Assembly: GCF_051903065.1 (NCBI RefSeq)
Contig: NZ_CP178438.1
Origin: Escherichia coli
GTDB lineage: Bacteria; Pseudomonadota; Gammaproteobacteria; Enterobacterales; Enterobacteriaceae
Reading direction: 5' to 3' (one strand)
Length of the DNA stretch: 64,000 bases
Shown here: positions 36,759-64,000 of the stretch, one piece after another
Layout of the letters: every line of letters begins with the position of its first letter
Position numbering within the stretch: position 1 is the first letter of the stretch
Made by a program: the position numbers and the translations under genes
The notes under the pieces: generated by a model
Database searches by the model: none
What the model was told of the DNA's origin: nothing
The model's input: only the letters and a program-made list of their open reading frames with translations

Positions 36759-36881
36759 ATGCACGGTAATTCTGAAATGCAAAAAATCAACCAAACCAGC
36801 GCAATGCCTGAAAAAACTGACGTTCACTGGAGTGGTCGGTTTAGCGTTGCACCAATGCTCGATAGGATGTACCGTTTTTGA
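36759..36881 (+). pseudogene. dusA: Displaced 5' fragment of dusA (tRNA-dihydrouridine synthase A) at prophage left junction
   Basis: ATG at 36759 encodes MHGNSEMQKINQTSAMPEKTDVHWSGRFSVAPMLD (dusA N-terminus from memory), then diverges (RMYRF-stop at 36881). Confidence 0.75.
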
Positions 36882-37116
36882 AAAACAACTAGTTATACAC
36901 TTTGTGGGAGCCTATTGGGAACCTGTTATTCTTAGAAAGCATCATTTGCTCATCACTTCAATTGACCATGGTTAAAGCCAGCTATAAACTTGACAAACGA
37001 GGTAACTGGTTGCTTAGGCCCAAGTGGGCACACCATAAGAAGCTCGTGTTGGTGATGAAGCAACCCATGAAGTATCGAGAATAATTATAAAGTTCACTAT
37101 CTTTGAGGTTTCTTAT

Positions 37117-37689
37117 ATGTTTTGCGAAGAAAAAGTAGCTCAAATGGCTGCATACCTACTTCTTAAGCGAGGTGGGCGCATGGCATATCTGAAATTGATG
37201 AAGTTGCTCTATCTGTCTAACCGCCAGTCGATTTTGAAGCATGGCAGGATGATCGGCGAAGATAGCCTTTACTCTATGAAATTTGGACCAGTCATGTCGA
37301 ATACGCTGAACTTGATTCGCGGTAAGGCTGAAGGCATTGGTGACTACTGGTACAACTTGATAGAGACGAACGGGCATAATGTATCGTTGCGTTCAGATCC
37401 GAGGGAAATGGATGCAGACGAGGTCTTTGATGAATTGAGTCGTGCAGATATCCGGATTTTAGATGAAATCTATTCTCGGTATGGGCATATGAACCGATTT
37501 GATCTCGCAAATATGACGCATTTAGAAAGCGTTTGTCCAGAGTGGCACGATCCTGGCAATTCTCGTAAGCCTATAGACCTGAAAGAAATGCTGATCAGTG
37601 AGGGTAAAAGCGAGGATGAGGCTAATCGCATAATTGGCAAAATGGAAGAATCTCAGAAACTTAAGGAATTTTCTTTGCAATTATCATGA
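37117..37689 (+). CDS. Panacea/DUF4065-like protein (SocA/GepA-like; putative antitoxin)
   Basis: 190-aa ORF; LKLMKLLYLSNRQ...SMKFGPVMSN segment resembles the DUF4065 core; stop overlaps next ORF start. Confidence 0.55.
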   Translation: MFCEEKVAQMAAYLLLKRGGRMAYLKLMKLLYLSNRQSILKHGRMIGEDSLYSMKFGPVMSNTLNLIRGKAEGIGDYWYNLIETNGHNVSLRSDPREMDADEVFDELSRADIRILDEIYSRYGHMNRFDLANMTHLESVCPEWHDPGNSRKPIDLKEMLISEGKSEDEANRIIGKMEESQKLKEFSLQLS

Positions 37690-38105
37690 CGGATTATCAG
37701 CCATACAGGAAAGGAACTGTGCTTGCCCCAACTGGGCCATGCAATCATCTTCATGTGATTTGTAATGATCCTGTTTATTACCCCGTTAACGATTGTTATT
37801 GTGTTTTAGTTGTTAATATTTCTAGTATCAAGGATGGTGTCCCCCACGATCCGTCTTGCGTCTTGAATTCTGGTGATCATCGCTTTATCAAGCATCCAAG
37901 TTATGTTGTTTACGCTGAAGCTATAATTTGGCGAGTGGATAACATGGTTAGAAAGCAGCGATCGGGTGAGATTTCTGTTCATGATGATATGCCAGAAGCT
38001 ACATTCAATAGAATTCTGGACGGTTTTGATATCTCTGATGAAGTTACGCCAAAGAACCTTAAATTTAAAAATAAATATTGCGTATCATCTATTGATGATG
38101 AGTAA
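37686..38105 (+). CDS. Hypothetical 139-aa protein translationally coupled to the Panacea-like gene (candidate toxin/effector)
   Basis: ATGA start/stop overlap at 37686-37689; no family recognised; Cys/His cluster CNHLHVICND...DCYC. Confidence 0.5.
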   Translation: MTDYQPYRKGTVLAPTGPCNHLHVICNDPVYYPVNDCYCVLVVNISSIKDGVPHDPSCVLNSGDHRFIKHPSYVVYAEAIIWRVDNMVRKQRSGEISVHDDMPEATFNRILDGFDISDEVTPKNLKFKNKYCVSSIDDE

Positions 38106-38145
38106 ACAACAGGAATTGTTTCGGTATAACTTCAGGAGTTTTCTA

Positions 38146-38319
38146 TGGAAGATCAAAAAGCAACCAAGCCACAGGTTAAGTTCGACACAATGAAAGCATT
38201 CGCAGGTATGGGTGCTGCTGTTGAAGTTCTGATGAAGGCTGCTCCTAATGCGTTCACTCACGCTACTGTCTCTGGTAAAGAGCAGCAGGGTAAGCTTCGT
38301 CGTCGCAAAGCAGCATGAT
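38146..38319 (+). CDS. Small hypothetical protein (57 aa)
   Basis: ATG at 38146 (MEDQKATKPQVKFDTMKAFAGMGAAVEVLMKAAPNAFTHA...) ending just before a strong terminator; below the ORF-track size cutoff. Confidence 0.35.
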
Positions 38320-38337
38320 CATAGCTGGTGCTTTTTG

Positions 38338-61528: not shown

Positions 61529-61536
61529 GAATCTTC

Positions 61537-61707
61537 ATGTTTGTGAAACCTGTTAAAGGGCGGTCAGTTCCTGACCCTGCCCGCGGAGACCTTTTGCCCG
61601 CCGAGGGGCGAAATGTTGATGAGAACAACTACTGGCTGCGCCGTGAAGCAGCGGGTGATATCCGGCGCGTGAATAAAAAGGTGAACACCGATGACGATAA
61701 GCTTTAA
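61537..61707 (+). CDS. Small DUF2635-like protein preceding sheath gene
   Basis: 56-aa ORF from ATG 61537 (MFVKPVKGRSVPDPARGDLLPAEGRNVDENNYWLRREAAGDI...); overlaps sheath start. Confidence 0.4.
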   Translation: MFVKPVKGRSVPDPARGDLLPAEGRNVDENNYWLRREAAGDIRRVNKKVNTDDDKL

Positions 61708-63187
61708 CACCATTCCGTCGAATACGCTGGTTCCGCTGTTTTATGCGGAAATGGATAACTCGGCGGCGAATACTGCACAGGACAGCGGGGCATCGTTGCT
61801 GATTGGTCACGCCAATAACGGTGCAGAGATTATTGCCAACAGTCTGGTGCTGATGCCGTCGGCAGACTATGCACGCCAGATTTGTGGTGCGGGAAGTCAG
61901 CTGGCGCGTATGGTTGAGGCTTATCGCCAGACCGACCCGTTTGGCGAGCTGTATGTGATTGCCGTTCCGGAAGCCACAGGCGCGGCGGCAACGGTTACGC
62001 TGACGGTGACCGGGGCGGCAACCGAAAGCGGCACGGTGAATGTCTATGTGGGACGTACCCGCGTGCAGGCTCCGGTGACCAACGGCGATAACGTCACGAC
62101 GATTGCCAGCAGTATCCAGGATGCCATCAATGCCGTTCCGACCCTGCCGTTTACGGCTTCATCTTCGGCAGGCGTGGTCACACTGACCGCGCGTCATAAG
62201 GGGCTTTGCGGGAATGAAATTCCTGTCAGCCTCAATTACTACGGCTTTGGTGGTGGCGAAGTGCTGCCAGCGGGCGTACAGATTGCCGTGGCGACGGGTA
62301 CCGCCGGAACGGGTGCTCCGGTTCTCACCGGCGCGGTGGCTGCAATGGCGGATGAGCCGTTTGATTATATCGGCCTGCCGTTCAACGACACGGCCTCCGT
62401 TAACACGCTGGTGACCGAGATGAACGATACCAGCGGTCGCTGGAGCTATGCGCGTCAGCTGTATGGTCATGTGTATACGGCAAAGATCGGCACGCTGTCA
62501 GAACTGGTGACCGCAGGTGACCAGTTTAACCAGCAGCACATTACCCTGGCGGGGTACGAAAAAGAGACCCAGACGCCTGCCGACGAACTGGCGGCAAGCC
62601 GTACCGCCCGCGCAGCGGTGTTTATTCGCAACGATCCGGCACGTCCCACGCAGACCGGTGAGCTGGTGGGTATGCTGCCTGCGCCGAAGGGGAAACGGTT
62701 CACGATGACCGAACAACAGACCCTGCTGTCTCATGGCGTGGCAACGGCGTATGTCGAAAGCGGGGTGCTGCGCATTCAGCGTGATGTCACCACGTACAGG
62801 AAAAACGCTTACGGTGTTGCGGATAACAGCTACCTCGACAGCGAGACGCTGCATACCAGCGCGTATGTGCTGCGCAAACTGAAATCCGTCATTACCAGTA
62901 AGTACGGGCGTCACAAGCTTGCCAGCGACGGTACCCGCTTTGGTCCCGGTCAGGCGATTGTCACCCCGGCGGTGATCAAAGGGGAACTGCTGGCAACCTA
63001 CCGTCAGCTTGAGCGTGCGGGGATCGTGGAAAACTACGAACTGTTTAAGCAGTACCTGGTTGTGGAGCGTGATGCCAGCGATCCGAACCGCCTGAACACG
63101 CTGTTCCCGCCTGACTATGTTAACCAGTTGCGTGTCTTTGCCGTGGTTAACCAGTTCCGTCTTCAGTATTCAGAGGAGTCTGCATAA
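61691..63187 (+). CDS. Contractile tail sheath protein
   Basis: 498-aa ORF; size and position; followed by tube gene. Confidence 0.75.
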   Translation: MTISFNTIPSNTLVPLFYAEMDNSAANTAQDSGASLLIGHANNGAEIIANSLVLMPSADYARQICGAGSQLARMVEAYRQTDPFGELYVIAVPEATGAAATVTLTVTGAATESGTVNVYVGRTRVQAPVTNGDNVTTIASSIQDAINAVPTLPFTASSSAGVVTLTARHKGLCGNEIPVSLNYYGFGGGEVLPAGVQIAVATGTAGTGAPVLTGAVAAMADEPFDYIGLPFNDTASVNTLVTEMNDTSGRWSYARQLYGHVYTAKIGTLSELVTAGDQFNQQHITLAGYEKETQTPADELAASRTARAAVFIRNDPARPTQTGELVGMLPAPKGKRFTMTEQQTLLSHGVATAYVESGVLRIQRDVTTYRKNAYGVADNSYLDSETLHTSAYVLRKLKSVITSKYGRHKLASDGTRFGPGQAIVTPAVIKGELLATYRQLERAGIVENYELFKQYLVVERDASDPNRLNTLFPPDYVNQLRVFAVVNQFRLQYSEESA

Positions 63188-63543
63188 TGGCCCGTATCGG
63201 GGGAACCTGTTATTTCAAAATTGACGGTCAACAGCTATCGCTGACCGGCGGCATTGAGGTGCCCATGAACAGGACGGTCAATGATGACATCATCGGCCTG
63301 GACGGTTCAGTGGACCGCAAGGAAACTCACCGTGCGCCTTATGTCAAAGGGACTTTCAAAGTGCCGAAGAATTTTCCGGTGAACAAAATCACCTCGTCTG
63401 ATGAGATGACTATCACTGCCGAGCTGGCGAACGGTCAGGTCTATGTACTGTCGTCTGCCTGGCTGCACGGCGAAGCGAACCATAATGCCGAAGAAGGCAC
63501 GGTTGATCTTGAGTTCCACGGTGAAGAAGGGGATTACCAGTAA
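63187..63543 (+). CDS. Tail tube protein
   Basis: 118-aa ORF, ATGA-coupled to sheath. Confidence 0.65.
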   Translation: MARIGGTCYFKIDGQQLSLTGGIEVPMNRTVNDDIIGLDGSVDRKETHRAPYVKGTFKVPKNFPVNKITSSDEMTITAELANGQVYVLSSAWLHGEANHNAEEGTVDLEFHGEEGDYQ

Positions 63544-63812
63544 TGAAAGAGCTTGAGTTAAAGAAACCGATTACTGCTCATGGCGAGACACTCTCCGTAC
63601 TGGAGTTTGATGAGCCCACCGGGAAGGATGTCCGCGAGCTGGGGTATCCCTACCAGATGAATCAGGATGAGTCAGTCAAACTTCTGGCGCATGTGGTGTC
63701 GAAATACATTGTGCGGCTGGCGAAAGTGCCGCAAAGCTCTGTCGACCAGATGTCTCCGGCAGACCTGAATGCAGCGGCGTGGCTTGTGGCTGGTTTTTTC
63801 CTCCAGGCCTGA
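63543..63812 (+). CDS. Tail assembly chaperone (short form)
   Basis: 89-aa ORF after tube gene; contains slippery run near its end. Confidence 0.6.
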   Translation: MKELELKKPITAHGETLSVLEFDEPTGKDVRELGYPYQMNQDESVKLLAHVVSKYIVRLAKVPQSSVDQMSPADLNAAAWLVAGFFLQA

Positions 63813-63961
63813 CGGCTGAATACCTCACTGATCGCTTCTTTGACTGCGCCAGCTACTGGCGCATTAATCCTTTCGAATTGCTGAATATGCCGATCAGTGA
63901 AATTCCCTTACTGGTCAGTCAGGCAAACAGGATAGAGCAGGAGAAACGCACACATGGCTGA
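63779..63961 (+). CDS. Tail assembly chaperone -1 frameshift extension
   Basis: Overlapping -1 frame ORF; slippery T TTT TTC at 63794-63800. Confidence 0.5.
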   Translation: MACGWFFPPGLTAEYLTDRFFDCASYWRINPFELLNMPISEIPLLVSQANRIEQEKRTHG

Positions 63962-64000
63962 ATTTGAGCTTAAGGCGTTGATCACCGGTGTCGACAGGCT

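Follow-up and report, generated by a model that had tools for sequence, protein, structure and literature searches.

Genes at the dusA Locus

The stretch of the Escherichia coli contig NZ_CP178438.1 (assembly GCF_051903065.1) that we analyzed, 64,000 nucleotides long and referred to below as the window, carries the host genes plsB-dgkA-lexA-dinF-yjbJ-zur-yjbLM, followed by a truncated dusA fragment and then by phage genes, according to annotation transferred from strain MB53 and from K-12. Native dusA can be followed in the alignment from its ATG (36759) through position 36862, and phage DNA begins at 36863. The prophage extends from there past the right end of the window at 64000, with about 27 kb of an expected total, judged from relatives, of about 40 kb being visible. 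We read it as the attL-proximal part of a temperate lambdoid myophage of the SfI/SfII/SfIV/SfV, vB_EcoM-720R4, and SKA5 group that a dusA-specific tyrosine integrase inserted into the gene's 5′ end, and we assign this reading a probability of roughly 0.93. A prophage had been noticed here in an earlier sequence-only reading, which placed its start at 36864; the prophage is real, while the alignment with K-12 dusA moves its first base to 36863.

The identities of the modules were tested on the window's own open reading frames (ORFs), with database matches reaching E-values as low as 1e-100 (Table 1). They bear out the composition proposed in the sequence-only reading, namely, a lambdoid switch, a lambda R-type endolysin, an HNH-terminase and HK97 head module, and a contractile sheath/tube tail. 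In the switch, a cI gene (helix-turn-helix [HTH] plus S24 domains) is divergent from a cro-like HTH gene and a CII/CP76-family ORF; the head module comprises PF01844, small and large terminase subunits, portal, S78 protease, and PF05065; and the tail has Pfam sheath and tube families, the sheath being related to Mu gpL.

Attachment Site in dusA

The interval from 30000 to 42000 is matched in 5,425 of 5,426 complete E. coli genomes, and its best match is strain MB53 at 99.0% identity (about 99.0 to 99.1%), where the corresponding dusA fragment is annotated as a partial tRNA-dihydrouridine synthase. We aligned K-12 dusA, representing the empty site, with the window and with the far junction of the MB53 prophage. 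The window diverges from dusA precisely where MB53 attR and K-12 attB carry on, and ATGCTCGA is the sole block identical across K-12 attB, the window attL, MB53 attR, and the attP of phage mEp460. This block contains the core reported for phage Phi1720a-02, whose attB reads GCTCCCATGCTCGACTGGA in reverse complement (PMC6328086), and the insertion site in the window coincides with that attB. At the far junction of MB53, a diverged copy of the 104 nt of dusA (83% identical in nucleotides and in 26 of 34 residues) precedes authentic dusA, and a 104-nt dusA mimic is also present in the attP of mEp460 and SKA5. Since the 104 nt of native dusA, the core, and the P′ arm match the att sites of K-12, MB53, and mEp460, the window junction is, on the evidence of the alignment, exactly the attL expected from recombination between attP and attB.

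Inside the P′ arm are two tandem TGGGA(G/A)CCT motifs, at 36905-36913 and 36916-36924, and the P arm of mEp460, beside int, holds three more GGGAACC copies, so that its complete attP runs from the start of int through three GGGAACC motifs, the dusA 5′ mimic, and ATGCTCGA to the P′ arm. These motifs are candidate arm-type integrase sites; because TGGGAACCT is not enriched over the window as a whole (8 matches against 12 expected), the argument for them is their local clustering beside the core together with their conservation in the mEp460 attP. A single insertion site in the dusA 5′ end is a feature of elements with dusA-specific integrases, and this is what the window shows. No tRNA genes are present in the window, which rules out a tRNA attachment site.

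The Integrase and Its Directionality Factor Lie at Opposite Prophage Ends

No integrase ORF was found between zur/yjbLM and the prophage or within 36863-64000, in line with the sequence-only reading, and the prophage continues beyond the right end of the window. In MB53, which has the same junction and a 99% identical prophage, the element is about 39.6 kb long as a whole, and a 365-aa tyrosine integrase (PF00589) is encoded at its far end, divergent from an intact dusA. Past the equivalent of the window, the MB53 prophage carries Mu gp42-48-like tail and baseplate genes, tail fiber genes with a Gin-type invertase, a dinI-like gene, and then the integrase. MB53, SKA5, mEp460, Lys8385Vzw, and 1720a-02, the five relatives that were examined, all have the integrase at the far end beside dusA, which bears out the sequence-only reading that in the window the xis-like gene, here a PrtN-domain gene, is parted from the integrase by the whole prophage. 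The integrases of these relatives are 98 to 100% identical to each other and about 21% identical to SfV Int. On the attP side, the genome records of SKA5, Lys8385Vzw, mEp460, and 1720a-02 give the order dinI - int - attP (dusA mimic) - cargo - PrtN gene - exonuclease. The int-dusA junction was found in 728 of the 5,426 genomes, and the present attL junction with the left 5 kb was found in 298 of them.

The PrtN-domain ORF was assigned to PHROG 1300, "excisionase" (E = 8e-40). Its sequence gave no match against the PDB even at E = 10; its AlphaFold model, built from 22 homologues, was confident (pLDDT of 88.9) and adopts the winged-helix fold of recombination directionality factors (RDFs), with structural match scores that were modest, as expected for a winged helix of about 55 residues, but mutually consistent, P2 Cox being the top match. 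RdfN, a PrtN-domain protein, is required and, together with Int, sufficient for the excision of dusA-specific elements (Durand et al. 2021, PMC8409611). Judging from its sequence and predicted fold, the window protein is an RdfN homologue and the predicted RDF of a dusA-specific module.

The dusA-specific integrase family was defined along with the observation that element DNA replaces the dusA 5′ end (Farrugia et al. 2015, PMC4482086), and all dusA-specific elements lack xis beside int, with int and rdfN on opposite sides of attP (PMC8409611). Because attP sits between the two genes, they come to lie at opposite ends of the integrated prophage. In experiments with Phi1720a-02, integration occurred 100 bp into dusA at a conserved 7-bp core, an ORF termed PhidusA′ restored dusA, and mitomycin C-induced excision needed Int (PMC6328086). 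The separation of int from the RDF gene is thus the hallmark and normal layout of the dusA-specific module (PMC8409611, PMC4482086), and the oddity that the sequence-only reading implied falls away. An RDF gene standing alone at a prophage end and flanked by truncated dusA is not to be taken as a sign of decay or of an exotic arrangement; the integrase is then to be expected about 40 kb away, beside the phage-restored dusA, a point that is of value mainly for annotation and little for discovery.

The most serious alternative is that the prophage is a defective or cryptic remnant, truncated past the window or without a functional integrase, in which the distance between xis and int reflects decay. 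The right end of the window cuts the tail operon, which leaves completeness out of view, and many E. coli prophages are defective, among them CPS-53/KplE1, which shares yfdP/Q/R. However, all of the approximately 45 ORFs in 36863-64000 are full length when compared with the isolated phages 720R4, SfV, and SKA5, the attL junction is precise, the prophage of MB53 is complete with int at dusA, and the int/RDF split occurs in viable phages. We consider a remnant improbable.

A 76-aa protein of V. cholerae, 61% identical to the window PrtN protein, is encoded beside zur where an island with an MpsA-type Integrase_1 gene has its edge (contig SRR27944811_1, 9001-13827). The locus fits the SGI1-like dusA islands of PMC8409611, whose RdfN may or may not be the same protein. 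The same island carries an OLD-TOPRIM/AAA_15 ATPase and UvrD-helicase pair (Gabija-like) and resembles an SGI1-like dusA island with defense cargo. On another Vibrio contig (VFEG01000045.1, 3430-6399), a PF11112 gene is divergent from an S24 repressor gene and is followed downstream by a replication gene of the P2 gpA type; it thus holds the position that Cox has in P2, which fits P2 Cox as the top structural match of the window protein.

Mosaicism and Relatives

The mosaic map was drawn by local BLAST of 36864-64000 against relatives. Coverage and identity were 98% at 97 to 99% for the MB53 prophage, 81% at about 97% for vB_EcoM-720R4, 65% at 92 to 97% for SfV, 63% at mostly 93 to 98% for SKA5, and 44% at mostly 95 to 98% for the siphophage mEp460. 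With mEp460 the prophage shares the att region, rdfN, and the early-left, immunity, and nin-Q regions (95 to 98%) but no virion gene. The regions in common with SfV are early-left, nin-Q, lysis, terminase, and tail, with lysis, packaging, and tail genes 95 to 97% identical; its immunity region, recombination module, and portal-protease-capsid block are not shared. Over the structural half, identity to the Shigella phages SfI/SfII/SfIV/SfV is 96 to 98% at the DNA level. The portal-protease-capsid block (56163-59759) is the SfI/SfII/SfIV/720R4 allele, the head module being 96 to 97% identical in DNA to those of SfII, SfI, and SfIV, and the Salmonella phages ST64B and sal3 share the head block only, to about 60195. 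Recombination between phage lineages, as proposed in the sequence-only reading, is therefore borne out: by local BLAST, the mosaicism is real, with sharp boundaries between mEp460-, SfV-, and SfI/SfII/SfIV-type modules. It is the long-described SfV/SfII type of mosaic and as such already known (PMC3851460).

Within the head module we noted an allele swap, SfV and SKA5 carrying a divergent HK97-family version between terminase and connector genes that are about 96% identical. The same allele split, with both versions of the HK97 family, was reported in the SfIV paper, and electron microscopy showed the SfIV/SfII/SfV relatives to be myoviruses with contractile tails (PMC3851460).

The sharp change of best-matching relatives along the sequence could also be taken as a sign of a recent and unique hybrid, made in this strain when a siphophage of the lambda kind recombined with a Mu-like or HK97-like phage. 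Yet the same combination of lambdoid early region, HK97-family head, and Mu-like tail occurs at 96 to 98% identity in SfI/SfII/SfIV/SfV, 720R4, 689R6, and complete E. coli genomes, the structural block being found in 629 of 5,426; MB53 alone matches nearly the entire region; and the tail is just 36% identical to Mu at the protein level, so that the join must be ancient. We regard a recent hybrid as very unlikely. We attribute the mosaic instead to old, repeated exchange of modules in the lambdoid gene pool. The prophage type is common and already described, and its integration module has already been characterized.

Comparison with Known Systems

The Sf phages, vB_EcoM-720R4, vB_EcoM-689R6, and SKA5 resemble the prophage in their lambda-like gene order, yfdP/Q/R, nin-Q, S/R/Rz, HNH-terminase, HK97-family head, and Mu-like tail, with structural DNA 95 to 98% identical. 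The gene content of the window shows the features of SfV-like lambdoid myophages, namely, cI/cro, Q, an S-R-Rz organization, an HK97-family head module, and a Mu-like contractile tail. SKA5 has in addition the same dusA int - attP - PanA cargo - rdfN module but differs in its lysis genes and its immunity region, that of the window being of the mEp460 type, and both SfV and SKA5 have the other portal-protease-capsid allele. The Sf phages differ in that they carry gtr genes for serotype conversion and an int-xis pair that is adjacent and unrelated; we presume that they attach elsewhere, at a tRNA gene.

A serotype-converting phage of the SfV type, with a lambda-like adjacent int-xis pair, gtr genes, and a tRNA site, would account for the extent of the match to SfV, about two-thirds of the region. 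The insertion site, however, is dusA and not a tRNA gene, and the SfV block of int, xis, and gtr O-antigen genes next to attP has no counterpart in the window, which makes the prophage a structural relative of these phages rather than a serotype-converting phage. Identity to the counterpart proteins of the dusA module is 21% for SfV Int and 14% for SfV Xis, and the relatives carry an invertase, DinI, and the dusA integrase in place of the gtr genes, leaving this explanation with hardly any probability. An R-type, pyocin-like tailocin, suggested by the PF11112 "pyocin activator PrtN" match, the sheath and tube genes, and the lysis cassette, was likewise rejected as extremely improbable, since such a headless contractile cluster is at odds with the complete, intact set of terminase, portal, protease, capsid, and connector genes, with the replication genes and att site, with the DNA-containing myovirus particles formed by relatives (PMC3851460), and with the RDF role of the PrtN-domain protein in dusA elements (PMC8409611).

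On the side of integration, mEp460 and the Stx2 phage Phi1720a-02 are among the closest known systems. Both are dusA-integrating lambdoid siphophages whose attP contains the dusA 5′ mimic, with integrases 98 to 99.5% identical among relatives; their PrtN/RdfN genes are 97% (mEp460) and about 90% or more (1720a-02) identical to that of the window, and the early-left, immunity (mEp460), and nin-Q regions are 95 to 98% identical. They differ in having lambda/cdtI-type heads, noncontractile tails, other lysis genes, and other att-proximal cargo, and Phi1720a-02 carries stx2. Of the two findings that, taken together, the sequence-only reading had named as its refutation, one has been made: known phages match closely, but the integrase is not adjacent to the xis-like gene.

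With the dusA-specific elements (Farrugia 2015; RdfN, Durand 2021) the prophage shares insertion into the dusA 5′ end and a predicted PrtN-type RDF across attP; replacement of that end and a tyrosine integrase beside dusA are expected from its relatives. The RdfN that was studied belongs to an IncC-mobilizable Vibrio island under AcaCD control, whereas the homologue in the window ends what is probably a cI-controlled phage early operon. KplE1 (CPS-53), HK620, and Sf6 resemble the proposed organization of the prophage in that int faces att with its own promoter, the RDF lies at the other end, and transcription of the two is uncoupled (Panis et al. 2010), and they share yfdP/Q/R; in these phages, as in P2, the int promoter overlaps the att region (PMC2951348). 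They differ in integrase family, in target (the argW tRNA), and in RDF family, which is TorI and not PrtN, so that the likeness is one of organization and not of membership. Phage lambda has a similar cI/cro/CII-type switch, an O-like initiator, Q, an S-family holin, and an R endolysin about 93% identical to that of the window, but its int and xis genes are neighbors to one side of attP, it has a siphovirus tail and another head and terminase, and it lacks the HNH gene.

Proposed Mechanism of Integration, Excision, and Late Expression

In the model that we favor, attP (P arm, dusA 5′ copy of about 104 bp, core ATGCTCGA, and P′ arm) would recombine with attB, which lies 104 nt into the gene. 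This would orphan the 5′ end of native dusA at attL, the state seen in the window, and at attR the phage copy would be fused in frame to the rest of dusA and DusA expression kept, as shown in relatives and as is probable for this genome. From the gene order, the cI repressor, an S24 autopeptidase, is predicted to silence the divergent early promoters, and SOS-induced cleavage of cI would switch on the leftward operon, the last gene of which would be rdfN, followed by a strong hairpin at 38337-38362. Such a position at the end of a cI-controlled early operon makes SOS the likely inducing signal. A separate promoter in the P arm, next to dusA, would drive int and leave int and RDF transcription uncoupled, as in KplE1 and P2, and Int and RdfN together would then excise the phage. 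In the late stage, rightward transcription would proceed through the replication functions to Q, and read-through brought about by Q would express the methylase, S/R/Rz, HNH-assisted cos cleavage by terminase, the HK97-type head, and the Mu-type contractile tail. What drives rdfN expression in phage-like dusA elements was left as an open question in PMC8409611, to which a cI-repressed leftward operon with SOS as the likely signal is a suggested answer.

The interval 36700-44200 was scanned for promoters and terminators. The promoter scan gave no more sites than shuffled sequence, and terminator-like sites were about twofold enriched; only the hairpin at 38337-38362 is used in the argument.

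TABLE 1 Features of the prophage and its attachment site in the window
Feature	Position	Strand	Evidence and remarks
Orphaned native dusA 5′ fragment, first 104 nt	36759-36862	+	Bacterial arm of attL; identical to K-12 dusA, diverges after 36862
Crossover core ATGCTCGA, 8 bp	36855-36862		Common to attB, attL, attR, and attP
Phage P′ arm of attL	36863-36924		Matches mEp460 attP 24593-24654, two mismatches in 62 nt
Panacea-domain (PanA-type) putative antitoxin, cargo gene 1	37117-37689	+	PF13274 SocA_Panacea, E = 2.2e-19
MazF/Kid/CcdB-fold putative toxin, 139 aa, cargo gene 2	37686-38105	+	4-nt overlap with gene 1
Conserved 57-aa ORF, function unassigned	38145-38318	+	phrog_2741, E = 8e-36; corresponds to mEp460 gp24
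Strong stem-loop terminator, 11-bp stem	38337-38362		Between cargo genes and convergent rdfN; shared by both
PrtN-domain, RdfN-type predicted RDF (xis-like gene)	38366-38647	-	PF11112; last early-left operon gene; 1.5 kb from attL
DEDDh 3′-5′ exonuclease (Rv2179c-like)	38684-39259	-	PF16473, E = 4e-75
Early-left operon: Ea22-like, DUF551, YfdR HD-type 5′-deoxynucleotidase, YfdQ (DUF2303), YfdP	39256-42334	-	Family matches and MB53 annotation
cI-type repressor (HTH and S24 autopeptidase)	43037-43729	-	PF00717, E = 6e-19, plus HTH families
Divergent pRM/pR-type control region	43730-43826		Imperfect inverted repeats, TTGCG(C/T) half-sites
cro-like HTH	43827-44087	+	PF01381, E = 6e-10
CII/CP76-family regulator	44080-44631	+	PF06892, E = 5e-16
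O-like replication initiator	44976-45968	+	phrog_391 "replication initiation O-like," E = 1e-101
nin-like region: PerC-family, Dam-type N6-adenine methyltransferase, LexA-DNA-binding-domain protein, RusA, KilA-N, DUF968/HNHc	45965-49647	+	
Late antiterminator Q	49661-50413	+	PF03589, E = 2e-53
N6/N4 DNA methyltransferase, Q-to-S "moron" position	51020-52072	+	PF01555, E = 2e-42; PADLOC MTase_II, E = 2.5e-152
Lambda-S-family holin	52053-52484	+	PF05106, E = 6e-27
Lambda R endolysin, 158 aa	52488-52964	+	About 93% identical to lambda lysozyme 1AM7, E = 1.4e-96
Rz-like spanin	52948-53340	+	Per SfV and 720R4 annotation
HNH endonuclease	53524-53874	+	PF01844, E = 5e-16; directly upstream of small terminase gene; equivalent to SfV orf53 at right genome end
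Position of SfV linear record termini	53932-53933		SfV 37074 aligns to 53932, SfV 1 to 53933; between HNH gene and terminase
Terminase small (P27/Terminase_4) and large subunits	53991-56224	+	PF05119, E = 2e-21; PF03354 and PF20441
Portal, S78 prohead protease, HK97-family major capsid	56418-59507	+	PF04860, E = 4e-108; PF04586, E = 1e-31; PF05065, E = 5e-79
Head-tail joining: small ORF, gp6-like connector, head closure, Neck1/tail completion, tail terminator	59557-61528	+	Pfam; phrog_879
Mu-like contractile tail, proximal: DUF2635 (Mu gp38-like), sheath, tube, assembly chaperone	61537-63812	+	Pfam sheath/tube families

Early, Lysis, and Virion Genes

The early-left operon genes are common to SfV orf29-32 and mEp460. 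Between yfdP and cI lie about 700 bp (42335-43036) in which MB53 has no annotated gene and mEp460 has two small annotated plus-strand ORFs; an N-like antitermination function could hide there. The hairpin found at 42998-43015 resembles a terminator on either strand. Between cI and cro is a 32-nt imperfect inverted repeat (43748-43779 and 43783-43814) with candidate operators. The repeat is built of TTGCG(C/T)G and C(A/G)CGCAA heptamers about 15 nt apart, an unusually wide spacing. Two DNA methyltransferases are encoded in the prophage, one in the Q-to-S interval and the Dam-type enzyme of the nin-like region (46426-47112, plus strand); in Phi1720a-02 the interval between Q and the holin gene holds the same Q-to-S methylase and then stx2. 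Also in the nin-like region, 47109-47435 (plus strand) encodes a 108-aa protein that consists of a LexA DNA-binding domain alone (PF01726, E = 3e-19) with no S24 cleavage domain, and which could occupy LexA boxes while being uncleavable in the SOS response.

The endolysin ORF had no Pfam match at E ≤ 0.01, and its identity was settled by the search against solved structures (1AM7). Cos phages are known in which an HNH gene adjoins cos and the terminase genes (PMC3592412), and the position at which the ends of the linear SfV record meet makes a cos site at about 53932 probable. The best PDB matches of the capsid protein are HK97-family capsid proteins. Along its full length the sheath shares 36% identity with Mu gpL (500 aa, E = 1e-90), and it matches PDB 9khy at E = 1e-80; the DUF2635 ORF shares 42% identity with Mu gp38. 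In BLASTP against phage Mu, the tube, connector, portal, capsid, and terminase proteins had no match, so that "Mu-like" holds for the tail only, by sequence for the sheath and gp38 and otherwise by Pfam families and the annotation of relatives. The distal tail (Mu gp42-48-like), seen in relatives, would lie beyond the window.

A Panacea/MazF-Fold Pair in the att-Proximal Cargo Slot

Between attL and rdfN lies a two-gene cassette (Table 1), whose candidate promoter is at 36962-36990. The second gene had no Pfam match, and the cargo genes had no PADLOC defense-system match. Homologues of the second gene in Shewanella, Vibrio, and Proteus (52 to 63% identical) lie directly 3′ of a Panacea gene in all three loci, with all flanking genes different, and the protein has a MazF/CcdB fold with an invariant His/Cys/Asp set. 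A two-gene operon of a Panacea antitoxin and a toxin is the concept of PanAT (PMC8832971). On sequence and fold, the cargo pair fits a PanAT toxin-antitoxin system, with toxicity and neutralization as predictions, and would be a small addition to the catalogue of prophage-borne toxin-antitoxin or defense cargo.

What lies between the attP P′ arm and the 57-aa ORF and rdfN (about 36925-38131) varies among dusA-integrating phages. This slot holds PanA and the putative toxin here and in SKA5 and Lys8385Vzw, gp23 in mEp460 (24655-25456), a 182-aa hypothetical protein in 1720a-02 (45890-46438), and a pair annotated as YafM antitoxin and YafO toxin in PhiR40_1. We see roughly even odds that it is a hot-swappable cargo slot, occupied here by an uncharacterized PanAT family that serves as a prophage-encoded addiction or anti-phage module.

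Observations in the Chromosomal Part

Left of the prophage, a DUF2713 gene (35373-36395, plus strand) is one intact 340-aa ORF; K-12 has two genes at this place (yjbL and yjbM), and MB53 has a frameshifted pseudogene. A low GC content (0.39, against about 0.51 in the flanks) marks 26001-28000; when coordinates are carried over from MB53, this stretch falls on a gene of the SopA family, frameshifted, that is flanked by malM and ubiC.

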